This document shows positions 878-24,674 of a DNA stretch of 38,218 bases, one piece after another. The position numbers were made by a program, and so were the translations under genes. The notes under the pieces are model-generated. The model did no database searches, was not told where the DNA came from, and was given only the letters and a program-made list of their open reading frames with translations. The DNA is from Desulfobacterales bacterium (lineage in GTDB: Bacteria; Desulfobacterota; Desulfobacteria; Desulfobacterales; JASFBJ01), in assembly GCA_030149585.1 (NCBI GenBank), contig JASFBJ010000001.1, positions 1 to 38,218 of the forward strand, given 5' to 3'. Each line of letters starts with the position of its first letter. Position 1 is the stretch's first letter.

Positions 878-1438
878 CTATTTATTTTCCAACTTTTCAA
901 GTTCGTTGTGCATTTTATCGGCATTAGATCTCACATAATCACGTACCTTGCTGTCCAGTTCCTTATAGCTATCCAGGGTATCTTTGAAAGCTTCCAGATC
1001 CAGTTTGCATAGTGCGAAAAGTGAGCCGTCTTGAGGATCAAGCCAGTGATCTACAATGGTTGCCCCGTGCAAGGTTGTCTTTGAAAAAGTTTTCAGAGCC
1101 TGTTCCACATGCTGCTCCTCAGAGGATGCAGACATATCTCCGGCAGTGGTGGAAGCCATATAATCCTTGGCCAGTACCGCCACGTAGCTCTCCAGAATCT
1201 TGGCTATTTCCGCCCTGGAACGATTATCAGCGGCGGTTCGCAAAAGAGCCCTGTTTTTTATGCCGGAGGCTACACCAACACCGTAAAAAACCTTTCCACC
1301 TGCATCATCAAAGGCGCCGCTGCCTTTCCAGACCCAATCCGGTCCTTTCATGTTTTTGGATTGTGATGCGCAGCTTGTAAACAGAAAAAGAGCTGCTATT
1401 ACCATTACCAACAAAACCATTAAACGATTGACTTTCAT
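878..1438 (-). CDS. LPP20-like exported lipoprotein
   Basis: 186-aa ORF with AAGGAGG 6 nt upstream of the ATG. Signal peptide with lipobox (LFTSC). Core GVGVASGIKNRALLRTAADNRSRAEIAKILESYV is typical of LPP20/FlgP-type lipoproteins. Confidence 0.6.
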   Translation of the reverse strand: MKVNRLMVLLVMVIAALFLFTSCASQSKNMKGPDWVWKGSGAFDDAGGKVFYGVGVASGIKNRALLRTAADNRSRAEIAKILESYVAVLAKDYMASTTAGDMSASSEEQHVEQALKTFSKTTLHGATIVDHWLDPQDGSLFALCKLDLEAFKDTLDSYKELDSKVRDYVRSNADKMHNELEKLENK

Positions 1439-1440: not shown

Positions 1441-2610
1441 CTACCTCCTTTTTTTACCTTTTTTAAAATCTTGAATCATATCGTGCATTTCTTCCATCAT
1501 ATCTTCCATCTCCTTCATTCCCTCGATCAATTCATCCATATCAAAAGGTTTTTTTTCTGTCAGAATTTGACCTTTGGCAGGCCCCTGGGCAATCACTTCA
1601 TCTTTGGGTAATGCAGGCGAAATTTTTTCAGATGGCGAAGGACCAGGCGGAACGGCCTTTGGGGGAGCAAGAGGAGTCGCTTTAGGGGGACGGCTTTCCT
1701 CTTTTTGGGGTAAAGGAGTTATAGCGGGTGTTTGTTCAGACTTTTGGATTACTGGTTTTTTCTCAGGTTGTACTGGTGTTGTTATAACCGGCTCAACTTT
1801 TTTAGGGGTTTTTGCTTTGGGAACCTGGGGTTCAACCTGAGCAGGTGCACTGGCAACCGGTTTTTTAGCTTTTATCTGATAGCCTTTCTCATTCAGCCAT
1901 TTAATAGCAACATTTGATTTAATGGAAAAATTGACATCTGTGATGGTCAATCCATCCGAGGCTTTGCGGGCAATCATGGAGTTGATTCCAATCATATCTC
2001 CATTTTCATCCAAAAGCGGGCCTCCGGAATTACCCCTGTTAATACTGGCATCTGTTTGAAAAAGATGCTTACCGGAAATACCGCCGTAATTACGCCAGTA
2101 GGCACTAACTACGCCGGTTGTTAAGCTCCAGAGACCGCCTTGTTCAGGATGACCGATAGCATAAACTTTTTCGCCGATTGAAACTGGTTCGGAATCAGCA
2201 AAACTAACCATCGCGAGATCCCCGGCAGGTTTTATAATTTTTATCAGGGCAAGATCCAGAGGAATATCATAGGCAATTATTTTGCCCCGATATCCTTTAG
2301 CCAGATCTTTTTTCATGTCTCCGGTAACTCTGGCCGGTTTCAGATAAATTGATATATCCGCCAGTAATTTAGACGAGTTTTTCTGGGTAAAAAGATGAGC
2401 ATTGGTTATAATCAGCCCATCTTTGCGAATAATTGATCCTGTGCCGCCACTGCCTGATTGGGAGCCTTCTGAAGCAAAAATAAACACAACTCCAGGGCCG
2501 GCACTTTTGTATATCATTTTTGGCGTCATTGCCATGGCCTGAACCGTAACCAAGAAAATCCCGGTTAGAAGCAGACTCAAAATTATTTTGGCCTGAACTC
2601 TTTTTTTCAT
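1441..2610 (-). CDS. Secreted trypsin-like (S1C/DegP-like, no PDZ seen) serine protease with Pro-rich linker and Met/acid-rich C-terminal tail
   Basis: Motifs IITNAHL (His), LDLALIK (Asp) and GNSGGPLL (Ser); N-terminal signal peptide. The ATG at 2610 is preferred over 2622 because GGAGGTG lies directly upstream of it. Confidence 0.8.
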   Translation of the reverse strand: MKKRVQAKIILSLLLTGIFLVTVQAMAMTPKMIYKSAGPGVVFIFASEGSQSGSGGTGSIIRKDGLIITNAHLFTQKNSSKLLADISIYLKPARVTGDMKKDLAKGYRGKIIAYDIPLDLALIKIIKPAGDLAMVSFADSEPVSIGEKVYAIGHPEQGGLWSLTTGVVSAYWRNYGGISGKHLFQTDASINRGNSGGPLLDENGDMIGINSMIARKASDGLTITDVNFSIKSNVAIKWLNEKGYQIKAKKPVASAPAQVEPQVPKAKTPKKVEPVITTPVQPEKKPVIQKSEQTPAITPLPQKEESRPPKATPLAPPKAVPPGPSPSEKISPALPKDEVIAQGPAKGQILTEKKPFDMDELIEGMKEMEDMMEEMHDMIQDFKKGKKRR

Positions 2611-2725
2611 ATTCACCTCCATTTAAATCTTATTATTTAAATCAATTAAATCGGGTTAATCTGAAAGCTTGCAGTTTTGATTCGGGTTTTATCTATTTTA
2701 TATCTCCGGTTTATATCTCCGGTTT

Positions 2726-4087
2726 TTATCTCTGATTTTTATCTCCAGCTAAGCGGGCACCTTCACTGGAAGGAGCGATAGACGATGCTTTTTGCCAGAA
2801 TTCATTAGCATTTGTTGAGTCACCGGCCAGTTCAGCGTAAACATTTCCGATTTTATAGTACATCATGGCTTTAAATTGAACATCCTGATTAATTCGGGCT
2901 GCCTCTTTATAGGCATCTGTTGCAATCAAGGATAATTTGTTTTTTTTCCGTTGAGACGCAAGTTTTTTGCCGAAAGCATAATTACTATCGCCTTTAAATA
3001 CCAGAGCCTCTACAAAATTTGGGTCATAATAAATTGCTTTGGCAATCATTTTATTTACTTTGCGAAGATTTTCAGCAATATTAAAAACTTTGGCATAATA
3101 AAAAAAGACATTGGGCGAGGTGGGATAACGGCCATAGATTATTTTAAGACGTCCCATGGTTTGCTTATATCGGGTTTTCCAAAGAGGCTGGCCACTCTCT
3201 TTTAATTGCCTTATATCTTCTATCATGGGATCAATTTCCGATAGTTGCATCTGAACGCCTCCAGCAGCAGGGCTACTGCCAGATGGCGGTGTATAACTGC
3301 TGCCAAAACTGCTGGTTGACAAAGCTTTGCGCGGTGTAACAAGACTTTTTACTAATTGCCCATAATGAATACCATTTGTTGCGTTTTCACTGATTATGTC
3401 GGCCTCCGCCATATTATCCCGAACCGATCTGATTTCAATCTTGCCTGTTTGAATTTTTTCAACATCAAGGACTTCGCCGGTTTTAGGGTGCTTAATAATC
3501 TTGCCTTCTTTATAAACGATAAATTGCATACCTTCTTTAACACCGGCTTTTCTGCCTAAATCAATGGATACTGAATTATCCTTTTTTAAAACAACATACC
3601 CTTCCAGAGGGAAATCCTTGATTATAATCTCGGCCATCTGTTTGACCAGGTCTTCAAGCCGGGTAGTGCTTGTACTTTTTACGCTCTCAGCTGTAATAAT
3701 GGAGGCGCTTTCCACATCAATAATTCTGGCGTTAACCTCGGTCATATTTTGAAATTTCATAACCGAGCCGGAGATGATTACCTTGACCCCCAGCAGTTTT
3801 CCAAGTTTGGTGGCGCTGGTCTCATTTACTACCCCGGTCATTACCAGCTTTTGTTCTCCCAGTATTTTTTTTAATAATCGCCGTTCAATTAAATCAAATC
3901 GGCCATCTTTAACAAGAGCCGTAATCAGCCATTCAGCAACAATTTTTCCCATATCAACGGTTTCATGGCCCTGGCCCTGAAGCTGAAAATCGAGTACTGC
4001 GATTTTAGTTCTTTGAAAGTCGGCAAATCCTGTTGCCGGCATAGCAAATATTATAAATATAGATAGAATAAGGATAAGTTGTTTCAT
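2726..4087 (-). CDS. Exported CsgG/FlgO/LpoB-fold domain protein with middle beta-barrel (FlgT_C-like) domain and C-terminal TPR repeats
   Basis: 453-aa ORF with AAGGAG RBS and a signal peptide. N-terminal pattern KIAVLDF...WLITALVKDGRFDLIERRLLKKILGEQKL...ATKLGKLLGVKVIISGSV matches the CsgG/FlgO/TolB_N-type fold. The C-terminal YYAKVF...YYDPNF...AYKEAARINQ...YYKIGNVYAEL looks like TPR. Confidence 0.55.
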   Translation of the reverse strand: MKQLILILSIFIIFAMPATGFADFQRTKIAVLDFQLQGQGHETVDMGKIVAEWLITALVKDGRFDLIERRLLKKILGEQKLVMTGVVNETSATKLGKLLGVKVIISGSVMKFQNMTEVNARIIDVESASIITAESVKSTSTTRLEDLVKQMAEIIIKDFPLEGYVVLKKDNSVSIDLGRKAGVKEGMQFIVYKEGKIIKHPKTGEVLDVEKIQTGKIEIRSVRDNMAEADIISENATNGIHYGQLVKSLVTPRKALSTSSFGSSYTPPSGSSPAAGGVQMQLSEIDPMIEDIRQLKESGQPLWKTRYKQTMGRLKIIYGRYPTSPNVFFYYAKVFNIAENLRKVNKMIAKAIYYDPNFVEALVFKGDSNYAFGKKLASQRKKNKLSLIATDAYKEAARINQDVQFKAMMYYKIGNVYAELAGDSTNANEFWQKASSIAPSSEGARLAGDKNQR

Positions 4088-4103: not shown

Positions 4104-5216
4104 TTATTTTAAATAAATAACCACGGAAGAGCCCTCAATTTCACTGACTGATAAAACTTTTTCTGAGATTATTTTACCATCAGCGGCCTCACTGAAACTA
4201 TCTGCATTGCCTTTATAAAGGACTGTCAATTTAAGACGGCCCTTGCTAAAACTGCGTTTAGTAACTGAAACCACTCTGTTAAGGCTTTTAATTATCCTGC
4301 GTACAGCCTTTTGTGTTTGAAAATCAGTAACATTTTTTATGGTGACATCAAGAGGTACGCCATTATTTATCATATCCTGAAAGGAGCTGATTGTTTTTTC
4401 AAATAGTCCCTGATCCATGAGTTTGATGGCGGCTTTTTCAGTTGCTTTGGTTTGAGCCATTGCCACTGAAGTATGAACAGCACCACTAACCGTGGTGAAA
4501 GTGGCAATGATTCTTGCGCTAGAGCAGTTGATTATTTTTGCCGAAATACTGGCCTGCCCTGATTTCAGGCCGGTTTCACTTAAAAAATCACTGGTTGAGG
4601 TGTCTTTGGTTACCTTGCCGATTATCATATAGTCGGCCCCATTGGAAGACCCAATGCGTGCGGCAGCTACTGGATCACCTGCCATGGCCTGCTGGATAAA
4701 TCCATCCCCTTTTTTCATCAGGGCTGCAACCGACGCTACATCAACAACAGTGAACTGTTTTTCTCTTAAATAATTAATAATTGTGTTTTCCCCGGTTTTG
4801 CCGTTTTTTTCAGCCACCATGACCATCATCCTGGGTCTATCCATGGATTCCAGTAAAATTTTCAGGGCAACAAGGTCGGATTTAATACTTGCCAGGGAAA
4901 CAATTGCATTAATTTTAACCAGATAGGAGCCATCTGCACGCTTGATCTTTTCCAAAATATCTACCTTTTTAACAGATCCCATGGCTCTGGAAAGGATAAT
5001 ATCTTTTTGAAGTTCAAAATTATTTATTTCAGTTTGAGAAATAATAAAAGTCCCGATTCCCTGTTCAACTGCATTTCGTTTGGCTGCCAAAAGGGCTGAA
5101 TTTTCCGTTGAACCGGTTCCCTGAGCCTGGACAGGAATGTCTTTGTTTTGATTTGCTGCAATGGCAAGAGAAATGGGAATAATAATCAGCATAAATAAAA
5201 GATATTTGATCTTCAC
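4104..5216 (-). CDS. Exported FlgT-like three-domain periplasmic protein
   Basis: 370-aa ORF with a GTG start preceded by GGGAGG, and a signal peptide. The N-terminal AQGTG...ALLAAKRNAVEQGIGTFI is LPP20/FlgT_N-like. The middle RPRMMVMVAEKNG...ADYMIIGKV is CsgG/TolB_N-like. Size and domain order resemble Vibrio FlgT. Assigned by eye only. Confidence 0.45.
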   Translation of the reverse strand: MKIKYLLFMLIIIPISLAIAANQNKDIPVQAQGTGSTENSALLAAKRNAVEQGIGTFIISQTEINNFELQKDIILSRAMGSVKKVDILEKIKRADGSYLVKINAIVSLASIKSDLVALKILLESMDRPRMMVMVAEKNGKTGENTIINYLREKQFTVVDVASVAALMKKGDGFIQQAMAGDPVAAARIGSSNGADYMIIGKVTKDTSTSDFLSETGLKSGQASISAKIINCSSARIIATFTTVSGAVHTSVAMAQTKATEKAAIKLMDQGLFEKTISSFQDMINNGVPLDVTIKNVTDFQTQKAVRRIIKSLNRVVSVTKRSFSKGRLKLTVLYKGNADSFSEAADGKIISEKVLSVSEIEGSSVVIYLK

Positions 5217-5658
5217 TTCCGACCTCCCAAAAAGGTTATTGCAAAATTAAATAAACATAAATTTATATCATAGTTTTTTTATTAAAATAATAATGCGGTG
5301 TTATAACCGTATAAACAGCATATAAGCCATAAAAAAATGGCCATGTCAAGCAGATGAGAAAAATCGTAATTTATGTCTTTCGAGGTATCTATCTTCTTAT
5401 TCCCAAGTTCCAGCTTAAAAACAAGAAGGAAAAATCCATAGCGGTTGCAAGTTTCGTGCTAAAATTATACATATTTAAAACATATAAAGAATTGGTTGTA
5501 AAATCAAACACTAAGATAAGTATGGCTATTTTATATATAATATGATTATGAATTTTTTTACATAAAAAATATGTAATTTATACACCAATTATGTAATAAA
5601 TTTCATATACGCCGCCAGATAGAACTCGTATATTTCCAAACATAAATATGCAATTTTA

Positions 5659-5684
5659 GGAAGTTATTTTGTCCTCGTTCCTTA
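5659..5684. repeat. Solo right arm of the 71-nt hairpin repeat family (see 32166..32236)
   Basis: ggaagttattttgtcctcgttcctta is 25/26 identical to 32212-32238. It lies immediately 3' of the FabZ-like stop codon. Confidence 0.7.
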
Positions 5685-5686
5685 GT

Positions 5687-6154
5687 TTATGGCGTTAAAG
5701 CCATGGCCAAAGACAGGGTTCCTTTGGCAATTATTTTTTCGGCAACCATGGCAAAGGTCTCAAACATAAATAAAGAGCCAATGTTTTTTAGCAGATTGGA
5801 ATGTAAAATCAGAGTATCTCCTGGACAGGCTGTTGTTAGATATTTCATGGATACTTTGCCAAGCACATATTGATCTTTTGGTTGTTTAAGCGCGGTTTTG
5901 CTTTGGGTTCGATTAAGCTCAAGCAATATCCCGCTGGTTTGGGCCAGGGCTTCTGTAATCAAAACCCCAGGCATTATGGGCCGCTTTGGAAAATGGCCTT
6001 TAAAAAACCAGGCATCTGCTGCAAGCTTTAGCGAAGCTGTAAGTTTTTCACCTGATTTAAATGTCAAAATTTGATCCACCAGCAGAAATGGTTCGCGGTG
6101 GGGCAGAATTTGTTTAATTAATTCAGGGTTATTAAATCGCGAATAAATAGTCAT
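5687..6154 (-). CDS. FabZ/FabA-like 3-hydroxyacyl-ACP dehydratase (hot-dog fold)
   Basis: HREPFLLVD...FFKGHFPKRPIMPGVLITEALAQTSG retains the catalytic His (GHFP) and Glu (TEALAQ). ATGA overlap with the upstream gene at 6151-6154. Confidence 0.8.
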   Translation of the reverse strand: MTIYSRFNNPELIKQILPHREPFLLVDQILTFKSGEKLTASLKLAADAWFFKGHFPKRPIMPGVLITEALAQTSGILLELNRTQSKTALKQPKDQYVLGKVSMKYLTTACPGDTLILHSNLLKNIGSLFMFETFAMVAEKIIAKGTLSLAMALTP

Positions 6155-7107
6155 GAAGATTCAAGGCCTTTTATTATTTTCACAGTATTTTGCAGCCTTT
6201 TCGCAGATGATGTATTCAAAATCGTTAAATTCCGATCTATCCAGCGTACAGTACCGCAAATTACAGCTCCCGGACCGACTTCAAGGAGCGTCCCTGGAAA
6301 TTGTTTTTTTATCATCTTAATCAGCTCAACCCACCTGACAGTACTGCTTAACTGGTCAGCCATAACCTTTATCAGCTTTTGCTGATTTTTAACAGGTGTT
6401 AAGGTGTGGTAGGAAATCAGGGGAATCATCGGGTTATTTAATGAAAAACCATCTGATTTTTTTAAAAAATGCCGTCCGGCCCCCAGCATAAAGGTCGAAT
6501 GATAAGCGCATTTGGCAGGCAGGAGATAAGCATCCAACGCGCCAATACCAATGGCTTTTTCCATAATTTGTTCAACAGAGGGCAACCGACCGGATATAAT
6601 TATTTGCCTTGGCGTATTAATAATAGCAATCGCAACATCTGATTTATTGGCGCAAAGGTCATTTAACTGCTCAATAGAGAGTCCAAATATAACGGCCATT
6701 GCCCCGTTTACAACTGAGCATTTTGCAATAAGGGCTTCACCGGCAATCTTTACGATTTTAAGCCCAAGGGAAAAATCAAAACAGCCTGCACAATAAGCAG
6801 CTCCATAAAAACCCGAACTGTAGCCGGCAGCGACCTGGGGTAAAATATTATGCTTTTTTAAAATATCGGTAAGGCAGCAGCTATTTACATAAACCGCCAG
6901 TTGAGCGTTTAGATCCTGATTCAGCTCTGTTTCCGGGCCATTAAAACAAAGTTTTTTTAAAGAAAAACCAAGAATTTTATCTGCCTTATTAAAAAGAATC
7001 CGAGCCTCAGGAAAGGCTTCATACAGGTCCGCTCCCATACCGACTTTTTGCGAGCCCTGACCAGGGTATAAAAAGGCAATATTATCGGCCATCGACTCCA
7101 ATCCCAT
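6151..7107 (-). CDS. FabD-like acyltransferase (malonyl-CoA:ACP transacylase superfamily, divergent active site)
   Basis: FLYPGQGSQKVGMG N-terminal motif; GYSSG nucleophile elbow encoded at 6811-6825; AYHS His motif. The start may be the second ATG at 7092 (MADNIAFLYPGQGSQ). Confidence 0.75.
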   Translation of the reverse strand: MGLESMADNIAFLYPGQGSQKVGMGADLYEAFPEARILFNKADKILGFSLKKLCFNGPETELNQDLNAQLAVYVNSCCLTDILKKHNILPQVAAGYSSGFYGAAYCAGCFDFSLGLKIVKIAGEALIAKCSVVNGAMAVIFGLSIEQLNDLCANKSDVAIAIINTPRQIIISGRLPSVEQIMEKAIGIGALDAYLLPAKCAYHSTFMLGAGRHFLKKSDGFSLNNPMIPLISYHTLTPVKNQQKLIKVMADQLSSTVRWVELIKMIKKQFPGTLLEVGPGAVICGTVRWIDRNLTILNTSSAKRLQNTVKIIKGLESS

Positions 7108-7798
7108 CTATTTCAATTTCTTTTACAGGCAGATTTATATCAAAAATTTTTTGAGGCAAATTTTCATTAATGGCCTCATATTGCAGTTGCAATTCAGTTG
7201 AATCCCCTTTTTTTTCCACAAAAAAAAGTTTTTCAGGTAACCAGAGGGATGTTTTTACTGTAATTTCAATCGTTTGTATAATTTTGCTCACAGACTTTTT
7301 TTTAGGATATAATTTAATGATATAACTGCCGGTCTGATCATCAGAGATCGCACTGATTTTATAGCGCTCTTTAAGCTGGGCAAGGGAAAGACCAAAACCA
7401 AAATATTTTTGCATAAAGGCATCTTTTGAACCAATATATTTTGTTTTTACTCTGTTGCCGACAGGGTCAAAAATAACCAGTTTTTTGTTGGCCAGCAGCA
7501 TTTCAAAGGGATCAGGATTTTGAACCTGAACTCGAATTTTTCCAGATCTTGAAAAAAAAATTTTCCCGGTTGAAATAAGTGGTTCGACTAATAATTCTGT
7601 TTTTTTTATCTGTTTAAAACCGGCAATAAAGGTTGTTAAACTGTTTTCCTGATTCTTGACGGCAATTAGAATCTCTTGCAGTTTAGCTTCTGAAATATTT
7701 AGAGCCAAAACCGGTCTAACTGGATAATAAACCAGTATTAATCCTATAACCAGCATTAGCGCAATTTGACCGGATATACCCTTGCAACAGGATTTCAT
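7082..7798 (-). CDS. LolA-like (outer-membrane lipoprotein carrier fold) periplasmic protein
   Basis: 238 aa with an N-terminal hydrophobic segment. The pattern F.Q...L....STGKIFFSRSGKIRVQVQNPDPFEMLLANKKLVIFDP is typical of the LolA family. There is a 1-nt gap to the upstream gene. Confidence 0.6.
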   Translation of the reverse strand: MKSCCKGISGQIALMLVIGLILVYYPVRPVLALNISEAKLQEILIAVKNQENSLTTFIAGFKQIKKTELLVEPLISTGKIFFSRSGKIRVQVQNPDPFEMLLANKKLVIFDPVGNRVKTKYIGSKDAFMQKYFGFGLSLAQLKERYKISAISDDQTGSYIIKLYPKKKSVSKIIQTIEITVKTSLWLPEKLFFVEKKGDSTELQLQYEAINENLPQKIFDINLPVKEIEIDGIGVDGR

Positions 7799-7799
7799 G

Positions 7800-9113
7800 T
7801 TATTTTTTCCCGGTTATATGCTGTTTGGTAATTGCAGATTGTTTAATTGTCTTTAGCCAGGCCATCCGGAAACCATAATTCTGGATGCCGAAAAACAAGC
7901 TGTTTTTGTTAAGCGGAAAAAGTCGTTTTATAATTGAAGGGATTCCATATAATTTTTCATAGGCCTTATAAAGGCCTTTTTGAAGCTGCTCCGGAGTCAT
8001 CCTGGCGGGTTTAAAAACCACATGATTCATATCATAAAGATCCCAATTAGTGTTTATTATCCTATTTTCACGTTTTAATCTATCATATATTCTGGTTCCT
8101 GGAAAAGGGGTTAACACTGAAAAGATAGCTGTCTCCAGATGGCTTTTTTCAACAAATCGAACAACATCTTCAAAAACTGTCTGGTCATCATGGTCATTGC
8201 CAAAAATAAACGACCCCTGAATACCAATACCATAATCATGGATTTGTTTAATGGCCTCACGAAATTTTTTGACCTGGTTAACTGATTTTCCCATGGCTTT
8301 CAGGTTTTCCTGAGAAAGAGATTCAAAGCCGATAAAAAGACCCTTGCAGCCACTTTTTTGAGCCAGCCTTAACAGCTGCCTATCCTGAGCGATACTTAAT
8401 GATGCCTGACTTAACCAGCGGATTTTAAGAGGTTCAATAGCCTTAAAAAGCTCTTTGGCATAAGATGGTTTGCCGACAATATTATCATCCACAAAAAAAA
8501 TGTGCCGGCCTGCCATGGGTTCAATTTCCCGGATAACCTCTGCAACCGGCCGGGTTCTATAAGTTCGGCCGTAAAAAGATGTTACTGAGCAAAAATCACA
8601 ATTAAAGGGGCACCCCCTGGTTGTTTGAACCGTATTTGTAAAAAAATAGGTTTTGGGCGGTAATATATCTCTTTTAGGGGGTTTCATATTAACAAGAGGA
8701 TGAAAGCCGGTAGGCCGATAAATCGTCTTAAGTTGATTATGTTTGAAATCATTAAGCAACTGGGGCCAGGTTGCCTCTGCCTCTCCTATTACCAGACTGT
8801 CGGCGTGGGCGGCTGCTTCACCGGGCATCATGGTAGGATGGATGCCGCCTAAAATAACAGTTACCCCTTTAGAGCGGTATTGGTCGGCAATTTTATACCC
8901 CCTGTTGGCCAGAGGGGTCATTAAAGAGATCGCCACCAGATCCGGCAGGTTTGAAAAATCAATTTTTTGACAGTTTTCATCTATAACGGCAACTTCCCAT
9001 TTATCATCCGTTAAAGCTGCCAGGCTTGTTAACGAGAGGTAGGGAAAACGAAAAACAATTTGTCCCCAGAGGCTGTGCTCTGGCCATTTTGGCGAAATAA
9101 TATTCAGCTTCAT
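7800..9113 (-). CDS. B12-binding-domain radical SAM enzyme
   Basis: CPFNCDFCS (CxxxCxxC) cluster motif. An N-terminal Rossmann-like cobalamin-binding-type domain precedes it (VAVIDE...DLVAISLMT...VILGGIHPT). ATGA overlap at 9110-9113. Confidence 0.8.
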   Translation of the reverse strand: MKLNIISPKWPEHSLWGQIVFRFPYLSLTSLAALTDDKWEVAVIDENCQKIDFSNLPDLVAISLMTPLANRGYKIADQYRSKGVTVILGGIHPTMMPGEAAAHADSLVIGEAEATWPQLLNDFKHNQLKTIYRPTGFHPLVNMKPPKRDILPPKTYFFTNTVQTTRGCPFNCDFCSVTSFYGRTYRTRPVAEVIREIEPMAGRHIFFVDDNIVGKPSYAKELFKAIEPLKIRWLSQASLSIAQDRQLLRLAQKSGCKGLFIGFESLSQENLKAMGKSVNQVKKFREAIKQIHDYGIGIQGSFIFGNDHDDQTVFEDVVRFVEKSHLETAIFSVLTPFPGTRIYDRLKRENRIINTNWDLYDMNHVVFKPARMTPEQLQKGLYKAYEKLYGIPSIIKRLFPLNKNSLFFGIQNYGFRMAWLKTIKQSAITKQHITGKK

Positions 9114-10027
9114 TGATGAAATCCGGTGCCGGCGGGCAGATTAATAGGATCCGGACAGTACCACTGATCAGGGTAGGAACGAATATAATGTTCAAAAATA
9201 CGGGCAATTTTATTTAAATTATGATCTAAATATTTGCTGCGGCTTTCGCGATGATTTATCCGGCCGGGCCAGATTGCCTCTTCCAGAATTCCAAAATAGC
9301 GGCCGTCTTTCTGGCGCAGTACAAAAGCTGGAATTATTGGAGCTCCGGAAGCCATGGAAAGCGCCAGGGGGCCCACTGGAAAATTAACCTGATTACCAAA
9401 AAAATGGATTGGACGGCCCCTGCCGAAAAAATCCTTATCTCCGCTCATGGCGATAATCTCATTTTTTCTCAACCGGTTTAAAATTTCAAGACCTGAAAAC
9501 GGAGATTGATTTACCTGCGTAATATTAATGCCTTTATTATTGCGCAATTGATTAACCAGAGTGTTTGAAGAATCGCTATTATGTCCCATCACAACAAGGG
9601 TTAAAGGATAATCCATGGCTCTTAGCATACTGCCGCCAATCTCCCAGTTTCCAAGATGAGCTGTCAGCAAAATAGCGCCTTTACCCTTAGCCAGGATTTG
9701 CTCTAATTGTTCTTTTCCCTTTAAATAAGAAAAAAATTTTTTTACCCGATTAGAAGAACATTGAGGAATGATAAAAAAATCAGCCATATATTGACCGTAA
9801 TTCATGAAAATCCGGCGAACGGTTTGGCGAATCAAGGGATCATTCACTGGCAGATTAAGCGCCTGGGAAAGGTTAAAGGCCAAACCTTGACGATCTTTTA
9901 GCGAAAAAACATAAACAAACGAAACAATAATTTTACCGATCAGGCGAGTGAGTCTTACCGGCAGATATTTGGCTATAAAAAAAATGCTGTAATAGGAGAT
10001 TGAGCTGTCAAGAAGATGTTTGCGCAT
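9110..10027 (-). CDS. LpxL/HtrB-family (lysophospholipid/lipid A-type) acyltransferase
   Basis: N-terminal membrane anchor; AILLTAHLGNWE (HX4-type acyltransferase region) and the overall pattern match the lauroyl/myristoyl acyltransferase family. The ATG at 10027 is preferred over the TTG at 10060 used in the track. Confidence 0.65.
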   Translation of the reverse strand: MRKHLLDSSISYYSIFFIAKYLPVRLTRLIGKIIVSFVYVFSLKDRQGLAFNLSQALNLPVNDPLIRQTVRRIFMNYGQYMADFFIIPQCSSNRVKKFFSYLKGKEQLEQILAKGKGAILLTAHLGNWEIGGSMLRAMDYPLTLVVMGHNSDSSNTLVNQLRNNKGINITQVNQSPFSGLEILNRLRKNEIIAMSGDKDFFGRGRPIHFFGNQVNFPVGPLALSMASGAPIIPAFVLRQKDGRYFGILEEAIWPGRINHRESRSKYLDHNLNKIARIFEHYIRSYPDQWYCPDPINLPAGTGFHQ

Positions 10028-10300
10028 TAATAGTTTACCTGCAAAAATATAACATCTCAATTAGTCTGGGATATTAAAAAATACTTGCACAATGCTAAAT
10101 CCCTGTACTTATTGAAAAATCATAGAAATAATTTATTTTTTTTTGATGAATTTTTTTCGCGTTTTGCAAAAAAACCCTTTACAGAGCAGTCGGGTTATAA
10201 TAGTGGACTGCCAGCATTATTATAAATGAGTTATCTTTATTACAAAATCTGAATAATTTGGTCAACTTATTTTCTGCTTTGTATGGCGGTGACAGATTAA

Positions 10301-10846
10301 ATGAATATTCATAAGATTTTCTATCTGTTTTTGATTTTTTTTCTTTTCTGGGGATGCTCTGCCCAATACCGGGTTAATTCTGAAAAATATACACCCTATC
10401 AAGGAGAGGTGAATCAGCATGCTCGCTTAATAATGGCCTTTCCTGATAAAATATTTAAGGCAATAACCAGTGCCGATGAACTTGAAAAAATATGCCCTGG
10501 GGGAACTCTGGTCAGCTTTGAAACACCCCCCCCCTATGGCCCTGGCACTATTGTGAAAACCAGAATTGAACATATTTTTAAACTGGGTTGGGAATCACGG
10601 GTGGAAGAGGTTGTCCAGGGGAAAAAAATCAGGCTGAAATTTATATCCGGTTTTTTTAATGGCGGAGTTGAACTGTGGGAATTTGAAAGCAGGGGCCTAT
10701 ACACTATGACAACTCACACCATTATTGTTGAGCCCCATGGAATTATCAAAAAACTGGCCTGGAACCTTAAAGTCCGCCGAAAACATAATAAGATGGTTGA
10801 GATTTTTCTTGATAATTTGAAATCACAGGTAGAAGCCTCGTTATAA
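10301..10846 (+). CDS. Lipoprotein with SRPBCC/START-like (polyketide-cyclase-type) ligand-binding fold
   Basis: Signal peptide plus lipobox (LFWGC). About 150 aa follow, with a beta-rich pattern and a terminal helix as in SRPBCC proteins. Fold call is by eye only. Confidence 0.45.
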   Translation: MNIHKIFYLFLIFFLFWGCSAQYRVNSEKYTPYQGEVNQHARLIMAFPDKIFKAITSADELEKICPGGTLVSFETPPPYGPGTIVKTRIEHIFKLGWESRVEEVVQGKKIRLKFISGFFNGGVELWEFESRGLYTMTTHTIIVEPHGIIKKLAWNLKVRRKHNKMVEIFLDNLKSQVEASL

Positions 10847-11709
10847 TGAAAAATCATGCTGCTATTTTTTTAAAATCTCAACCCTGTATTCTCTGCAAGT
10901 GTACTAATTTTCAGCAAATCCATCAGAAAGATAAATGGCGGTATCTGCGTTGTCGCAACTGCTCGCTGGTCTCTTTATACCCGCGCCCAACTGAACTTTC
11001 ACTTATTAATAACTATCAGGACTACCTGCCGGATCAGGTTTTATATATTTATAAGTGGCGCAAAATGATGCAGCCTTTAATTGATCATTCAGCTGATCTT
11101 ATTGAAAAAACGGTTTTTACAAAAAATAAAAATCTGCTGGATATTGGTTGTGGATTTGGTTTTTTCTTAAAGACTATGCAGGATCGTAACTGGCATGTAT
11201 CTGGAATTGAGATTGCGGATACCGGCAGACATTTTGCGCAAGAAAAGCTGGGTCTTAATGTTTATTCTCAGCCGCTGGCCGAACTTGATTTTAAAGCTCA
11301 CAGTTTTGATGTAGTGACTCTGTTTTATGTTATTGAACATGTGACTGATCCTCCGGCACTATTAAAACAGATTCATAAAATTCTTAAACCAGGGGGGCTG
11401 CTTTTATTACGCTGGCCTCACTCCACCCCGATTATAAAAATACTTGGGCCTTTTGCTGAAAATCTTGACCTTTATCACACCCCGTATCATTTATACGATT
11501 TTTCGCCGGCCACCATAAAATTCCTTTTAAACAACTGTGGCTTTTCGCAAATAAAAACCATTCCTGGGGGCTATACCTTGCCGGACGAAAGATTTAGGCG
11601 ATGGTCATCGATTATTTCAGGGTCTTGTGCAAATATGTTATTTAAAATAACAAAAGGGCGTTATTTGCTGCCCGGTACCAGCAAAACCACCCTTTCAATT
11701 AAGCCATAA
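10846..11709 (+). CDS. Class I SAM-dependent methyltransferase with N-terminal 4-Cys (zinc-ribbon-like) motif
   Basis: LLDIGCGFGFF motif I; VVTLFYVIEHV; LKPGGLLLL; N-terminal CILCKC...CRNC. TAATG overlap with the upstream lipoprotein gene. Confidence 0.8.
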   Translation: MKNHAAIFLKSQPCILCKCTNFQQIHQKDKWRYLRCRNCSLVSLYPRPTELSLINNYQDYLPDQVLYIYKWRKMMQPLIDHSADLIEKTVFTKNKNLLDIGCGFGFFLKTMQDRNWHVSGIEIADTGRHFAQEKLGLNVYSQPLAELDFKAHSFDVVTLFYVIEHVTDPPALLKQIHKILKPGGLLLLRWPHSTPIIKILGPFAENLDLYHTPYHLYDFSPATIKFLLNNCGFSQIKTIPGGYTLPDERFRRWSSIISGSCANMLFKITKGRYLLPGTSKTTLSIKP

Positions 11710-11725
11710 ATGTTTCAAGGGGCCC

Positions 11726-13711
11726 TCAGCATAAAAATACAGAAAGCAGGTCATCCCTGGCACTTGCATGCTGAATTTTAACCTGAACAAGCTCCTCTGG
11801 TTTCAAATTAATATTGCCAGATTTGCTCAAACGACATTCCATCATATATTCTTTGAGGAGAATGGTAAAATTATCACGATATTGATTTAATACCATGGCT
11901 TCTTTTTCTTTACCAATTTCATTTTCCAGATATTTCAGCAGCCAATAGCGGTGTCGTTTGAATTGAATTTTTGAAACCTGACTCATTGGTATACCAAGAT
12001 TTCGAATTATTTTTTTTATTTCCCTGGTTGAATAGGGCGCCTCCAGTCCCAGCACTGACCGCACCTGACGCTGGCTCACCAGATCAAAATATTTGCGAAT
12101 CGGGGAGGTCGCTGTGGTATAAGCATCCAGCCCCAAACCGCAATGGCGCTCTGGAGTTGTTCCCAATATAAACCTGCTTAAATGTTTGCGCTGCATCCAG
12201 TTTAAAAAAATTGAGCTTTCAACACCATTATAAAGGCGTTCCCTGGGGCCGGGTTGAGAACGAAAAACAGCAGGGACTTGATGTTTTTTTAAAAAGTCGG
12301 CAGTCAGCCAGTTAGCCATAATCATGATTTCAGATACAAGCATGCGGCCGGGGCTCTCTCGATTTGCTTGAGTCAGCATGGGAATTTGTTCATTATTAAG
12401 CCAGACATTGACTTCCGGCAAATTGATATGAACAGCCCCCTGCTTAACTCTTTTTTCCCTGAAATTTTTGGCGATCATGTATAAACCGGCTATGGTTGAA
12501 TTTTCATCCAGTATCAGATTGACATCAAAAAAAGTCAGCCGTTTTTTTACCTGGATTAAACTTGGAAAAATTTCATAATCTACAATATCAGCTGTGGGAG
12601 TGATTGTTATCATTGTGGATATGGCAGGGCGCAGTTCATTTTGTTTCAGGCTGCAAAGGTTTTCAGACAGCTTTTCAGGCACCATTGAAATTTTTTGATC
12701 CGGCATATAAATGGAGCTGGCTCTTTCTAAGGCTTCCTGATCTAAAATATCTCCCTTCTGGATATAATGACCTACATCCGCAATATGGATGCCCAAAATA
12801 TAATTTTCATTTTGCTTTTTAAGGCTTATTGCATCGTCAAAATCAAGGGTGAACTTGCCGTCAATAGTAATAATATCTAAATCACTAAGGTCTCGTCGTT
12901 TTTCACTGAAATTCGGTCTGCTGATTTGGCTGTTCAGACTATTTGCTCTTTCAATTGCTTTTGGGGAAAATAAAAGTGGTACATCGTATCTAAGAAGGTG
13001 AATATTCTCATTTTGATCCCATATTCCGAGCTTAACAAATAGGTTAAAAATAGCGGTTTTAGATTTTATACCTGCTTTTTTTAATATTGCCTGGGCCTGT
13101 TTATTATAGGGGCTATCCAGTTCATGCAAATAATATGATTTTAATATCTTTATAATTTCAGGGTCATTTTCAAAAGTTACGGGCTCCTTGGCAGCCAAAA
13201 CCATTTTGACCCAGTTTCCAGCAGTTTCTATTAAAAGATTCTGACGATCAGCCTCTTTGGCCTGAGCTTTAATTTGTTCAACTTTTTCAACTGAATAGGG
13301 AAAAAATGAATCTGTATTAAATTTAAAATAAAGCCGATTATTAAAAAATGCTCTTAAAACAGCTGATTGATAATCTTCATTTGGGTTTTCAGGAAAACAG
13401 AGTTCTGTCATGGTAACAAGATCAATCCACTCCTGTTCGCTGTTTAATACTTCCCAAAGTTCCTGAATATCCACTTTTTCAATTAAGGCCTTTCGGCGAT
13501 CGGCAATCCTTTTTAGGGCAGCGACCGTTTTTACCCTGCCAAGACCAAGATCAAGCTTGCTTTTACCGTTGCTAGCCAGCCGGTTGGCTGATAATTTAAC
13601 ATCACGGTTATATTCCGTCAGCAATTTCAGACGCAGTTTTTTAATTTCAATAATAACTGCGCAGATTATTTTTTGCTTATCTATAAATTCAACAATATTA
13701 CCTGTTTCCAT
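11726..13711 (-). CDS. RNase II/R-family 3'-5' exoribonuclease (RNB domain)
   Basis: RNB signatures ITIDGKFTLDFDDAISL, IHIADV, MVPEKLSENLCSL and YTTATSPIRKYFDLVSQRQV. The ATG at 13711 (METGNIVEF) is preferred over the upstream TTG at 13741. Confidence 0.85.
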   Translation of the reverse strand: METGNIVEFIDKQKIICAVIIEIKKLRLKLLTEYNRDVKLSANRLASNGKSKLDLGLGRVKTVAALKRIADRRKALIEKVDIQELWEVLNSEQEWIDLVTMTELCFPENPNEDYQSAVLRAFFNNRLYFKFNTDSFFPYSVEKVEQIKAQAKEADRQNLLIETAGNWVKMVLAAKEPVTFENDPEIIKILKSYYLHELDSPYNKQAQAILKKAGIKSKTAIFNLFVKLGIWDQNENIHLLRYDVPLLFSPKAIERANSLNSQISRPNFSEKRRDLSDLDIITIDGKFTLDFDDAISLKKQNENYILGIHIADVGHYIQKGDILDQEALERASSIYMPDQKISMVPEKLSENLCSLKQNELRPAISTMITITPTADIVDYEIFPSLIQVKKRLTFFDVNLILDENSTIAGLYMIAKNFREKRVKQGAVHINLPEVNVWLNNEQIPMLTQANRESPGRMLVSEIMIMANWLTADFLKKHQVPAVFRSQPGPRERLYNGVESSIFLNWMQRKHLSRFILGTTPERHCGLGLDAYTTATSPIRKYFDLVSQRQVRSVLGLEAPYSTREIKKIIRNLGIPMSQVSKIQFKRHRYWLLKYLENEIGKEKEAMVLNQYRDNFTILLKEYMMECRLSKSGNINLKPEELVQVKIQHASARDDLLSVFLC

Positions 13712-13977
13712 AATTATTAAAAATACCAATTCAAAGAGCAAAAGTCAATAATCATCAAAAAAGTACATATTTGTCGCAAAATGTTTTCAATAATATTTCA
13801 TTTTGGCAACCGCAAAAAAATAAAGGCCAAAAAATAAAATTTCTCAATATTTATATTGCAATATTTAGTATAAACGATAAGTTAAAAAATGATAATATAT
13901 GATTGATTATTAATTATCAAAATACACTTCATTGGCATGCACTTCAGCATACAGTTTTGACAAAAGGTGGTTTGAAG

Positions 13978-16509
13978 ATGAAGCAACTCATATTTGAATA
14001 TTTCATTAATAAAAAAATTGTAATTGTGGGTGGGGGAAATTTTTGTAAGGAATTATTAAATTTTTTTTTTGAAGCAGACCCGGCAAGCGATTTTCTCCAA
14101 ATATTAGGGGTGGCTGATATTGATACTAAAGCTGCAGGATTCCAATATGCAAAAGAAAAAAATATATATACAACAACCGATTATAAACAATTTTATAACA
14201 TACCGGATCTTGATATAATTTTCGAACTGACTCGGGATTCCAACCTCAATGAAATCATCAGAAATACCATTCCTGATAAAATTAAACTGATTGATCACCT
14301 GGAAGCCAGAGTTCTCTGGGATACTTTTAAAATTGAGCGGCAACGAATCAACACTATTAAAAATTTACAAAAGAGCACTGGTTGCTCAAAAGAGATAGAA
14401 GATCTCTTTAATCAATTTGCCGAATATGTTTCAGAAATCGTCAGAAAAAGGACCAATCGTTTCTACGAAATTGAAAAAGAGCTGGTGGACGGAGGTCGCA
14501 CTTTAACCCAAATTATTCAGGGCAGCACTATTCCGACTTTTGTTATTAACAAAGAACATATTATTACTCACTGGAATACAGCCTGCGAAAAACTAACCGG
14601 TTTTTCAGCAACCGAGCTTGTCGGCACCAATAATCAATGGGTACCATTTCGATCCGGTGAACGTCCGACCATGGCGGATATTATTATTAGTGATTTTGGA
14701 ACAAACGATTTAGTACGTTATTACGGTGCTAAATGGAAAAAATCTGATCTGATTAAAAATGCTTATGCAGCAGAAGAATTTTTTCCAAAGCTTGGAGAAA
14801 ACGGCAAATGGCTGTTTTTCACAGCAGCACCTATAAACGCGATTGATGGAACAATCGTTGGAGCCATTGAAACACTTTGGGATCGCACCGAAGAAAAACT
14901 TGCTGAACAGGAAAGGGACCAGCGCAACCAGGAGCTCTCCACTTTATGTTCCATATATTCCGCCCTAAGTACTTCCCTGGATTGGAATGATCGGCTGCAT
15001 ACGACATTTAAAGAGATTATTGACTATTTACCAGCAGATAAACTTTGTGTGTTTTTATTGAATGTTAAAGGAAATTTCAAGCTTTCATACTCCTATGGGA
15101 TTGAAAAGAATAAGAGGCAGACGATCAATAAACCGGATGATCAAAAAATAATCAACCAGGTAGCGCAAAAAAAAGAACTGACTATTATAGAAAATTTGTC
15201 AAAGGAAAATTTAATAAACGATGATTTTACAGGCAGCTCAAATTTTAAATCCATTATCTATCTGCCTTTGATGGCAAAAGAAAAAGAAGTTATAGGCGTT
15301 ATTAAAATAGGGAGCAAAACAGTTCAAAATTATTCTTCTGAAGTTAAAAATGTATTAGAATTGATCGGAAATAGAATTGGGGCTGCTATTGAAAATTATG
15401 AATTGCATGAGCAGTACCGTAAATCAGAAGAGAAATACAGGTCATTATTTGATAATGATCCAAATCCTATTTTTATTATTGATTATTCAACCCATAAAAT
15501 TATTGATGTCAATAAAAGGGCCCGGGATTGCTACGGCTATACCAATTACGAGTTTACAGGTATGCGCTTTGCTGATATCGGTGATGCAGAACATGCTGAA
15601 TTGATAGATGATTTAAAACAGATCCCGCAGAATCAGTCCGTCCTTTTTTCTAAAAAAAAACATTATCGCAAAGGAGAAAAACCCTTTTTCGTTAATGTTA
15701 ATATTTGTCATGCCAAATATGGCGAGAATGACGTGTTAATCGCTTCAACCACAGATATTACCGAAAGTGTTGAAAAAGAGGCACAGTTGATTCAGGCAAG
15801 CAAAATGACGACCCTGGGTACAATGGCGGCCGGCATAGCCCATGAAATTAATCAACCCTTAAACGTCATCCAGGTCTGTGTTGATTATTTTCTGAAAATG
15901 ATTAAAAAAGGAACACCAATTGCGAATGATGATCTTAAAACCATGTCCAATGATATCAGCAGCAACGTTCAACGGGCAGCGGAAATTATAAAGCATATGC
16001 GGGATTTTGCCAGGCAATCGGATGTTGTTACCCATAAAATAAATCTTAATGATCCAATTCAAGATGTCTTTGATCTTTTGGGACATCAGCTAACCGTGCA
16101 TCAAATAGAACTAAAGATTAATCTTGATCCACAACTTCCTGATATTCTTGCTGAACATAATCGCCTGGAACAGGTTTTTATCAACCTGGTGACAAATGCT
16201 GTGGATGCCATAGATGAAAAAGGAAAAATATTAAAAGGTCAATCTTTTCAGCGGATGATTGAAGTAAAAACTTTTTTGGATTTTGATCATGTTGTGGCAA
16301 TAGTTTCAGATACAGGCAATGGCATGCCAGGGGAAGTTATCGGAAAAATATTTGAGCCGTTTTTTACCACCAAGGACGTTGGCAAGGGGACTGGTTTGGG
16401 AGTTAGTATCAGTTATGGTATTATTAAAGATTATCATGGCACAATATCAATTCAAAGCAAAGTGGGCAACGGAACTTCCTTTGAATTACGATTCCCGGTA
16501 TGTTCATAA
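13978..16509 (+). CDS. Soluble sensor histidine kinase (Rossmann-like N-terminal domain - PAS - GAF-like - PAS - HisKA - HATPase)
   Basis: AAGGTGG RBS before the ATG at 13978. PAS-like IPTFVINKEHIITHWNTACEKLTGF and NPIFIIDYSTHKIIDVNKRARDCYGY. H-box GIAHEINQPLN. N/G boxes NLVTNAVDA, DTGNGMP and GTGLGVS. No transmembrane segment seen. Confidence 0.85.
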   Translation: MKQLIFEYFINKKIVIVGGGNFCKELLNFFFEADPASDFLQILGVADIDTKAAGFQYAKEKNIYTTTDYKQFYNIPDLDIIFELTRDSNLNEIIRNTIPDKIKLIDHLEARVLWDTFKIERQRINTIKNLQKSTGCSKEIEDLFNQFAEYVSEIVRKRTNRFYEIEKELVDGGRTLTQIIQGSTIPTFVINKEHIITHWNTACEKLTGFSATELVGTNNQWVPFRSGERPTMADIIISDFGTNDLVRYYGAKWKKSDLIKNAYAAEEFFPKLGENGKWLFFTAAPINAIDGTIVGAIETLWDRTEEKLAEQERDQRNQELSTLCSIYSALSTSLDWNDRLHTTFKEIIDYLPADKLCVFLLNVKGNFKLSYSYGIEKNKRQTINKPDDQKIINQVAQKKELTIIENLSKENLINDDFTGSSNFKSIIYLPLMAKEKEVIGVIKIGSKTVQNYSSEVKNVLELIGNRIGAAIENYELHEQYRKSEEKYRSLFDNDPNPIFIIDYSTHKIIDVNKRARDCYGYTNYEFTGMRFADIGDAEHAELIDDLKQIPQNQSVLFSKKKHYRKGEKPFFVNVNICHAKYGENDVLIASTTDITESVEKEAQLIQASKMTTLGTMAAGIAHEINQPLNVIQVCVDYFLKMIKKGTPIANDDLKTMSNDISSNVQRAAEIIKHMRDFARQSDVVTHKINLNDPIQDVFDLLGHQLTVHQIELKINLDPQLPDILAEHNRLEQVFINLVTNAVDAIDEKGKILKGQSFQRMIEVKTFLDFDHVVAIVSDTGNGMPGEVIGKIFEPFFTTKDVGKGTGLGVSISYGIIKDYHGTISIQSKVGNGTSFELRFPVCS

Positions 16510-16531
16510 TTAAAGGGAACTGAAAATCTTG

Positions 16532-18037: not shown

Positions 18038-18042
18038 TAATA

Positions 18043-18150
18043 TATAGACCGTCGCATAAATAATTTCACTGCGTTATCGGTCGGAGATATACTATTCGTA
18101 TTATCTCCTCTCTCTGGCCTTGTGAAATTTATTATGTGACAATTTATACA
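18043..18150 (+). repeat. Copy A of a ~108-nt long-hairpin repeat element (candidate structured RNA or MITE)
   Basis: About 93% identical to 34869..34976. Outer stem GTCGCATAAATAATTTCAC / GTGAAATTTATTATGTGAC. Inner stem GGAGATATAC / GTATTATCTCC. It lies in the 132-nt gap between the hybrid kinase and the receiver gene. Confidence 0.85.
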
Positions 18151-18169
18151 TAGGCCAGGAGGTTTTATA

Positions 18170-18562: not shown

Positions 18563-18589
18563 CAATAAATGTTCAGATAGGAGGATTTA

Positions 18590-19201: not shown

Positions 19202-19229
19202 ACACATCTTAAATAGCGGTTTCTGCTTT

Positions 19230-19266
19230 ATTTTGGATCGCAATATCGGCAATCGCGATCCAAAAT
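19230..19266. terminator. Bidirectional hairpin terminator between convergent genes
   Basis: ATTTTGGATCGC (19230-19241) pairs perfectly with GCGATCCAAAAT (19255-19266). A/T runs form both flanks. Confidence 0.6.
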
Positions 19267-19304
19267 AATTTTCATGTTTTATTCTGTCCGTCATGGCATG
19301 TGGC

Positions 19305-20909: not shown

Positions 20910-20931
20910 AAATTAATTTATTATTAAATTT

Positions 20932-24609: not shown

Positions 24610-24674
24610 GACTCACTCTAATAAATGGTTTTATGAAAACCTGAAATTCTCTGGAAATACTGATGATTGCTTTA

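Follow-up and report, generated by a model that had tools for sequence, protein, structure and literature searches.

What would a bacterium make with a predicted cobalamin-type radical S-adenosylmethionine (SAM) enzyme (rSAM) encoded among acyl-handling, attachment and export genes, in a locus that has no ketosynthase (KS) and no acyl carrier protein (ACP)? The question is raised by seven genes within a 38,218-nt stretch of DNA from a Desulfobacterales bacterium (GCA_030149585.1, contig JASFBJ010000001.1, positions 1-38,218 of the forward strand), the whole of which we call the window. Our tentative answer, held with a little less than even confidence, is that they form a conserved cluster, found in metagenome-derived Deltaproteobacteria and Thermodesulfobacteriota, for producing and exporting a specialised envelope lipid; we are less sure of each chemical step than of this overall reading. 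The genes, taken from the open reading frame (ORF) listing, and the region between the two divergent groups, read from the junctions, are as follows.

5687-6154, minus strand: FabZ-like gene, last of five
6151-7107, minus strand: FabD-like gene
7082-7798, minus strand: LolA-like gene
7800-9113, minus strand: B12 radical SAM (rSAM) gene
9110-10027, minus strand: acyltransferase gene, first of the operon
10028-10300, no strand: divergent AT-rich intergenic region, presumed shared promoter region
10301-10846, plus strand: lipoprotein gene
10846-11709, plus strand: methyltransferase gene

All seven ORFs were found where an earlier reading of the letters alone (the sequence-only reading) had placed them, and the junctions, read directly, bore out the tight packing that it had claimed for the five minus-strand genes. 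ATGA overlaps join the acyltransferase gene to the rSAM gene (9110-9113) and the FabD-like gene to the FabZ-like gene (6151-6154), a single nucleotide (7799) separates the rSAM and LolA-like genes, and the FabD-like gene overlaps the LolA-like gene by 26 or 11 nt, according to whether it starts at 7107 or 7092. We place the start of the acyltransferase gene at ATG 10027 and not at the upstream TTG 10060, because orthologues align from 'MRKH.LD'. The AT-rich divergent spacer, claimed to be about 270 bp long, measures 273 bp and has 28.6% GC against 39.1% for the window, and the lipoprotein and methyltransferase genes beyond it are TAATG-coupled, as claimed, at 10844-10848. A promoter scan of the spacer returned consensus-level matches only, with promoter and terminator counts close to shuffled expectation and uninformative, and an Rfam scan found no riboswitch or RNA family near the cluster, a tRNA-Leu being the sole match in the window.

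Is this arrangement a peculiarity of one genome? We scored its conservation at 22 independent loci outside the window's own species in which the rSAM is at least 64% identical (64-69%), drawn, as are the L-numbered relatives cited here, from species-representative genomes, metagenomes and exact-protein look-ups. The partners scored were the acyltransferase, rSAM, LolA-like, FabD-like and FabZ-like genes plus the divergent upstream lipoprotein/methyltransferase pair; 20 of the 22 loci keep all partners reached by their flank, and the divergent arrangement is kept at every locus whose flank is available. Two loci depart from this. In L007 the rSAM has no partner and lies next to archease and RtcB; L008 keeps the rSAM and an adjoining FabZ, with the other partners absent and an MMPL gene further off. 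All of these loci are metagenomic contigs or metagenome-assembled genomes (MAGs), and the few that are named are Deltaproteobacteria or Thermodesulfobacteriota; rSAM relatives of 50% identity or less stand alone or in other clusters. Conservation of the gene order across Desulfobacterota and other phyla, which the sequence-only reading had put forward for checking, thus held within one rSAM clade; in other phyla we did not find it.

One lineage, moreover, has the FabD-like and FabZ-like genes fused into one 440-residue ORF (L163/L164); the rSAM protein of these loci is carried on four contigs, and both of those inspected, from independent JGI and ENA samples, have the fusion. Synteny and fusion together exclude chance adjacency, and the fusion argues that both enzymes act on the same carrier-bound substrate. 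We therefore describe the five translationally coupled genes and the divergent pair as a co-inherited, operon-type cluster, whose catalytic residues are, to judge by the alignments, kept in all seven proteins. The cluster is modular around this seven-gene core. A PlsC-type acyltransferase (PF01553; NHQSLFD and FPEGTR motifs) lies directly upstream of the LpxL-family gene in L005, L026, L092, L094, L163 and L168, L005, L026, L166 and L168 have MMPL orthologues (40-60% identity) no more than a few kb away, and some loci add a TPR-like secreted protein, a PF01663 phosphodiesterase or a second B12-rSAM. As a separate observation, L005 and L006 represent one 17-kb region that occurs twice, inverted, on a 79-kb contig (DSDU01000243.1, 50752-68023 reversed and 11198-28469) with identical match coordinates, probably a palindromic assembly artefact.

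What do the proteins appear to be? The domain calls of the sequence-only reading are all supported by Pfam and NCBIfam, the lipoprotein, which falls below its Pfam cut-off, being backed by structure, and two of its finer points, the altered specificity residues of the FabD-like protein and the intact catalytic His and Glu of the FabZ-like protein, hold in the orthologues as well. The FabD-like protein matches Acyl_transf_1 at 4.7e-23 and departs from FabD malonyl-CoA:ACP transacylases in two ways: it reaches 230 bits against TIGR00128 fabD, below the cut-off of 260.9, and, in alignment to PksC (5DZ6), the malonyl-carboxylate-binding Arg is replaced by Ala and GHSLGE by GYSSGF, with the catalytic Ser and His kept. 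GYS(S)GF, the Ala and the His are invariant in 12 orthologues. Loss of this Arg in acyltransferase domains is typical of enzymes for monocarboxylic acyl groups, such as loading acyltransferases and acyl hydrolases. The FabZ-like protein, whose catalytic pair is invariant in orthologues, matches Pfam FabA at 3e-23 and passes the FabZ model NF000582 (119.5 bits, cut-off 113) while remaining below TIGR01750 (115.9 bits, cut-off 155).

The first gene of the operon bears on the strongest of the alternatives, that the locus serves lipid A remodelling, with the acyltransferase as a secondary (late) enzyme of lipid A acylation, adding an unusual chain supplied by the FabZ-like, FabD-like and rSAM enzymes. 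Its product has a strong Lip_A_acyltrans match (1.4e-29) and an H-x4-E motif ('HLGNWE') that is invariant in orthologues, several lipid A lauroyl-acyltransferase models match it weakly, and a FabZ paralogue beside an LpxL-family gene recalls the rhizobial acpXL-fabZXL-fabF-lpxXL cluster, which serves very-long-chain lipid A acylation. We nevertheless judge lipid A remodelling unlikely, as the LpxL/LpxM/LpxP models are far from being reached (TIGR02207, 50 bits against a cut-off of 298; TIGR02208, 30 against 336). The best NCBIfam model is that of the phosphatidylinositol mannoside (PIM) acyltransferase (106.7 bits, cut-off 209), and the best characterised relative found is the C-terminal domain (residues 362-543) of ApeJ (24% identity, E 4e-11) from the aryl polyene (APE) cluster of E. 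coli CFT073 (apeA-apeR, L165:33728-48749), our reference for this system, whose proteins we compared by BLASTP. The protein called LpxL/HtrB-type by the sequence-only reading is accordingly so in its superfamily domain and H-x4-E motif and not as LpxL/HtrB proper; we would class it as an ApeJ-C/PatA-like member of the lipid-A-acyltransferase superfamily. Moreover, lipid A moves via the Lpt system and not via LolA, of which the operon contains a relative, the PlsC-type acyltransferase and MMPL accessories of related loci point to a glycerolipid-like product, and no lpx or kdo genes were found in the window.

The LolA relative itself matches Pfam LolA at 4.4e-13 and has an N-terminal signal or anchor. 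Its best NCBIfam model is flexirubin LolA2 (NF053544), at 72.4 bits and below the cut-off of 125, and it aligns to E. coli ApeL with 25% identity (BLASTP, E 4e-6). These likenesses suggest a periplasmic carrier of hydrophobic cargo.

The rSAM is the member of the cluster whose chemistry matters most to the proposal. It matches the B12-binding domain (PF02310, 3.5e-11, 43.4 bits, cut-off 32.1), Radical_SAM (PF04055, 8e-17, 62.4 bits, cut-off 29.5) and DUF4070, and 173 of its 437 residues are invariant in the orthologue alignment, among them the core motif CPFNCDFC (CX3CX2C). By domain criteria, namely an N-terminal B12-binding domain and a CX3CX2C core, it is of the cobalamin (class B) type, and cobalamin binding is predicted. 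The protein has just five Cys, of which four are invariant (those of CX3CX2C plus one other), and hence no auxiliary Fe-S cluster motif. A B12-binding annotation was also given to the tetraether synthase GDGT-MAS, an enzyme with Fe-S clusters in place of cobalamin. The window enzyme reaches none of the NCBIfam cut-offs: its best matches are BchE (110 bits), HpnR (105), HpnJ (97) and TIGR04072 rSAM_ladder_B12 (85), for cut-offs of 360-650, so that the HpnR/HpnP/HpnJ/BchE equivalog models (481-650 bits) and the ladderane-type model (360) all lie well above it. We sought a structural assignment from a PDB sequence search and found nothing beyond a weak core alignment to the methyl-coenzyme M reductase (MCR) glutamine C-methyltransferase QCMT (9CCB, 62 bits); the solved Tes (GDGT-MAS) structure is absent from the matches at E <= 1e-3.

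More than 7,000 homologues of the rSAM were found at E <= 1e-20. Two near-identical top matches are followed by 118 that were listed, all 64-70% identical, and the names on these are Deltaproteobacteria or Thermodesulfobacteriota MAGs only. In a neighbour-joining tree the cluster rSAMs (at least 64% identity, including L007 and L008) are monophyletic, and beside them lie stand-alone relatives of wide distribution, 43-50% identical, from Omnitrophota, Nitrospirae, Methylomirabilota, Brocadiaceae, WOR-3, Geobacter and others. With its own clade below all curated cut-offs, the enzyme lies outside the characterised families, and so this check, one of those proposed by the sequence-only reading, came out in favour of that reading.

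This tree bears directly on a second alternative, in which the rSAM would modify bulk membrane fatty acids in the service of membrane homeostasis, for instance introducing mid-chain methyl branches or desaturating the chains anaerobically, while its neighbours channel or redistribute the chains. The clade is nested among the stand-alone relatives, which occur in many anaerobic phyla with no fixed partners, and such a partner-free spread is what one would expect if the substrate of the enzyme were universal; L007 and L008 likewise retain the rSAM without export genes. Because the L168 genome holds both forms, however, the stand-alone group is paralogous, and hence not orthologous, to the cluster rSAM, whose own clade is nearly always embedded with dedicated attachment and export genes. 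A literature search, in addition, found no link between B12-rSAM enzymes and bacterial mid-chain methyl fatty acids. We thus regard bulk fatty-acid modification as quite improbable. The use of the rSAM family as a tracker of 10-/11-methyl fatty-acid producers (Methylomirabilota, Brocadiaceae and Nitrospirae MAGs) was also considered and dropped, the relatives in question belonging to the paralogous stand-alone group and having no tie to the trait. In L168 itself (10469-14282), a second B12-rSAM, 45% identical and of the stand-alone group, is paired with an MMPL transporter directly beside the lipid cluster, a pairing that may hint that the stand-alone family is lipid-related too.

Across the spacer, the lipoprotein matches Polyketide_cyc2 at 8e-4, and structure was used to place it. 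An AlphaFold model built on 41 homologues has a predicted local distance difference test (pLDDT) score of 88.7 and resembles, in Foldseek, Bet v 1, PYR1 (PYR/PYL) and the bacterial START-like protein TTHA0849 (template modelling score, TM, 0.6-0.79), so that the model predicts the Bet v 1/START (SRPBCC) hydrophobic-ligand fold. This agrees with the call of an SRPBCC-like, lipobox-bearing lipoprotein, and the lipobox Gly-Cys is near-invariant (at least 90% of 41 sequences). The family is rare: among 5.8 billion proteins we found 54 relatives, which, save two near-identical and six partial ones, are 47-57% identical, and the four neighbourhoods inspected all contain the cluster. Its partner is a class I SAM-dependent methyltransferase (Methyltransf_23, 3.3e-23) with an N-terminal Cys4 ribbon and a GCGFG motif that is invariant in orthologues; it reaches no NCBIfam cut-off, the best being UbiG at 54.8 bits (cut-off 103).

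The near-invariant lipobox Cys, the constant presence of a LolA-like gene and the restriction of the family to the cluster in the neighbourhoods inspected would also be compatible with a dedicated lipoprotein system, in which the Bet v 1-fold lipoprotein is itself the cargo, given a special lipid anchor and sent to the outer membrane, an alternative that has been raised for ApeA in APE clusters (PMC8253772). We hold this to be very unlikely, since a ligand-binding fold fits a lipid receptor better than a cargo, and the rSAM, FabD-like, FabZ-like and methyltransferase proteins would be left without a role. Tail-to-tail coupling of fatty acids, as in Mss/Tes membrane-spanning lipid synthesis, has the least to commend it and is very improbable, for although the rSAM lies in a lipid context and Mss homologues are reported to be common in anaerobes (PMC11868695; PMC13159169), Tes couples chains via auxiliary Fe-S clusters, with the same postulated for Mss and Gms (PMC13459092), and the window enzyme has instead the Cys complement and B12-binding domain described above and no Tes structure among its PDB matches.

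We return to the reading of the locus as a specialised envelope-lipid cluster. Had the rest of a fatty-acid or polyketide assembly line escaped notice? A phmmer search of the six-frame translation of the 38-kb window, with queries that included ApeC/O/R, ApeE/F, ApeQ, ApeH and E. coli AcpP and a threshold of E <= 0.01, found no ACP, KS, ketoreductase (KR), MMPL protein, thioesterase or acyl-ACP synthetase, which extends to the whole window the absence of KS, ACP and KR remarked on in the sequence-only reading. What the locus holds may be described as an APE-like attachment and export module joined to a tailoring trio of rSAM, FabD-like and FabZ-like enzymes that would be fed by housekeeping acyl-ACP. 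The predicted compartments are consistent with such a division of labour, the trio being cytoplasmic, the acyltransferase membrane-anchored, the LolA-like protein provided with a signal or anchor and the Bet v 1-fold protein a lipoprotein.

On this basis we envisage the following route. Acyl intermediates would be drawn from the housekeeping fatty-acid synthase, as we infer because neither an ACP nor a ketosynthase is encoded in the cluster. The Arg-less FabD-like enzyme would move a non-carboxylated acyl group onto or off ACP, and the FabZ-type dehydratase, which some genomes encode as a fusion with the FabD-like enzyme, would yield a 2-enoyl intermediate. The cobalamin rSAM would act on an unactivated or allylic carbon, in the likeliest case methylating it or forming a C-C bond there in some other way. 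The ApeJ-like acyltransferase, joined in some genomes by an ApeD-like PlsC-type enzyme, would then, at the inner membrane, esterify the tailored chain to a membrane lipid, after which the LolA-like carrier would ferry the product through the periplasm, an MMPL pump helping in some genomes. The Bet v 1-fold lipoprotein would receive the product, and the SAM methyltransferase would decorate it.

The proposal agrees with all the computational tests that we could apply. Several points nevertheless weigh against it and are reflected in our tentative wording. The MMPL gene and the PlsC-type acyltransferase on which parts of the route draw were not found in the window itself, and BLASTP found no match of the methyltransferase to ApeB or of the lipoprotein to ApeA. 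Each biochemical step is put forward from family membership, and the acceptor of the acyltransferase is specified no more closely than as a membrane lipid. A housekeeping role for the FabZ-like protein is conceivable, given that it exceeds the cut-off of one FabZ equivalog model. L007 and L008 have lost partners, so that the rSAM can exist without attachment and export genes, and the named matches, all MAGs, include no isolate carrier to which a lipid phenotype could be linked. A bolder form of the hypothesis is that the rSAM clade performs an undescribed cobalamin-dependent C-H/C-C modification on housekeeping acyl-ACP, together with the Arg-less FabD-like enzyme and the FabZ paralogue, so that uncultured sulfate-reducing Desulfobacterota would have an outer-membrane lipid of a new class; we regard this as possible and rather doubtful.

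How far does the system extend? Downstream of the FabZ-like gene, beyond a 470-bp spacer (5217-5686) with 27% GC, no ORF of at least 80 aa and no Rfam match, lie four further genes.

4104-5216, minus strand: FlgT-like periplasmic/outer-membrane protein of 370 residues, a possible accessory (AlphaFold/Foldseek)
2726-4087, minus strand: CsgG/FlgO/FlgT_C-domain protein with a long C-terminal extension (domain search)
1441-2622, minus strand: trypsin-like protease (domain search)
878-1438, minus strand: LPP20 lipoprotein (weak match, 23.5 bits, below the Pfam cut-off of 25.9)

The FlgT-like protein has no Pfam match; its model (pLDDT 75) finds Vibrio FlgT best in Foldseek (3W1E and 8Z5N, E about 1e-9), followed by CsgG and LptE. 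A FlgT-like gene lies downstream of the cluster in the window and at eight other loci (two of them, L001 and L166, outside the 22), and in L166 there is a 4-nt overlap between its start and the FabZ stop. Some genomes have unrelated genes in its place, and it may be an accessory of the cluster or no more than a common neighbour. FlgT-like and CsgG/FlgO/FlgT_C genes recur beside the lipid cluster in many relatives, and the downstream genes, including the LPP20 lipoprotein, which we take to be FlgP-like, resemble the FlgT, FlgO and FlgP of the Vibrio H-ring, with no flagellar genes found nearby; a new lipid of the kind supposed above might be functionally tied to these adjacent FlgT/FlgO/FlgP-like outer-membrane proteins. 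The other genes of the window are housekeeping or signalling genes. Among them, a 590-residue ORF on the minus strand (21869-23641) is a purD-purE fusion (GARS N, A and C domains plus AIR carboxylase), and a FeoB gene lies near a DtxR-family iron repressor with a C-terminal FeoA domain (26654-28981 and 30925-31680).

Characterised lipid-modifying rSAM enzymes are few, and the cluster offers a compact seven-gene test system in which an rSAM of a clade of its own is joined to recognisable acyl-handling, attachment and export parts. Without a ketosynthase or ACP to supply, its cloning and anaerobic expression should be simple. We anticipate that such work could uncover new anaerobic acyl-chain chemistry and supply a lipid marker for uncultured sulfate reducers that are abundant in sediments, and that it may show the reuse of APE-type LolA/MMPL export modules for other lipids.

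To which known systems, finally, does the cluster stand closest? A resemblance to APE and flexirubin clusters, suggested by the sequence-only reading, is real and distant. The window has distant homologues of the ApeJ C-terminal acyltransferase and of ApeL, and homologues of ApeD and ApeM occur in related loci and not in the window, the accessory PlsC-type enzyme of L163 being 26% identical to ApeD (BLASTP, E 2e-12). Hotdog dehydratases are found in both systems, although the FabZ-like protein matches ApeI and ApeP weakly (E 3e-3 and 3e-2 in BLASTP), and in both a lipoprotein and a methyltransferase gene stand paired at one cluster end. The roles proposed in the APE system are attachment of the acyl product to a membrane lipid for ApeD and ApeJ, and its delivery to the outer membrane for ApeL, ApeM and ApeN (PMC8253772). 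The window cluster differs from APE clusters in having no KS/chain-length factor (CLF), ACP, ketoreductase, aryl-acid activating enzyme, thioesterase or DUF3261 protein, and no ApeN homologue was found in the window; APE clusters, in turn, have no radical SAM enzyme and no FabD-like protein. Although NF053544 is the best LolA model for the window protein, the score falls short of the flexirubin cut-off, as noted above.

Ladderane-type clusters of type II fatty-acid synthase (FASII) and rSAM genes, found in anammox bacteria, Desulfotalea, Geobacter and Pelobacter (PMC2649909), have products that are not known (PMC2649909; PMC13459092). In these clusters, as in the window, FAS-like genes adjoin B12-binding rSAM enzymes in anaerobes that include Desulfobacterota; unlike them, the window has no dedicated ACP, FabF paralogue, phytoene-desaturase-like gene or polysaccharide deacetylase, and its rSAM scores far below their model TIGR04072. 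The ladderane-type descriptions consulted (PMC2649909; PMC13459092) name no LolA-like gene, LpxL-family acyltransferase or SRPBCC lipoprotein.

With the lipid-modifying B12-rSAM enzymes HpnP/HpnR, HpnJ, BchE, GrsA/B and Gmm, whose substrates are hydrophobic, the window enzyme shares its order of domains, from a B12-binding Rossmann domain through the CX3CX2C core to a DUF4070-type C-terminus; it is unlike HpnR, HpnJ and BchE in scoring 97-110 bits against their models, far under the NCBIfam cut-offs. The lipid-modifying rSAM enzymes named in a 2026 review are only Tes, Mss, Gms, GrsA/B, Gmm, Cds, HpnH/J/P/R and Jaw5, the enzyme of ladderane synthesis being yet to be found, and the review contains nothing that resembles the window cluster (PMC13459092). 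Proteins have been identified as Mss by a match to Tmari_0825 or WP_129545148.1 with 30% identity or more and E <= 1e-50 (PMC13159169). Our literature searches did not find the cluster's combination of genes, including that of LpxL, rSAM and FabZ in sulfate reducers, described elsewhere.

A further relative is an uncharacterised cluster of Bacteroidales/Prolixibacteraceae (e.g. L049:186-16926), of which there are about 40 similar loci (L038-L069 and L129-L160). It encodes KS/CLF, a polysaccharide deacetylase, a flexirubin-type LolA2, a hotdog dehydratase, a 4HBT thioesterase, two enoyl-CoA hydratases, ketosynthase III (KSIII), a B12-rSAM, a 3-hydroxyacyl-CoA dehydrogenase, a haem-binding protein, a KS, an ACP and an Arg-less FabD-like protein, as well as one or two extra B12-rSAMs, one of which, at 322 bits, comes near the TIGR04072 cut-off; its LolA-like protein scores 226 bits with the flexirubin LolA2 model, above the cut-off of 125. 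In Bacteroidales MAGs (L029:5029-10685 and L032:6611-10612) we also observed three to four tandem B12-rSAM paralogues, 38-40% identical to the window rSAM, that adjoin a family-2 glycosyltransferase and a small ACP-like gene in what is by appearance a polysaccharide-type context. The Bacteroidales cluster shares with the window a B12-rSAM (33-40% identical), a LolA-like protein, an Arg-less GYSxG FabD-like protein and a hotdog dehydratase, and has neither the LpxL-family acyltransferase nor the SRPBCC/methyltransferase pair, both of which are present in the window. A module of rSAM, LolA-like, FabD-like and dehydratase genes thus recurs in two phyla, and the window cluster is best described as a form of that module without a ketosynthase. 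Taken with the likenesses above, the gene content points to a variant of the APE-, flexirubin- and ladderane-type lipid clusters, built around a B12-rSAM clade that lies outside the curated families.

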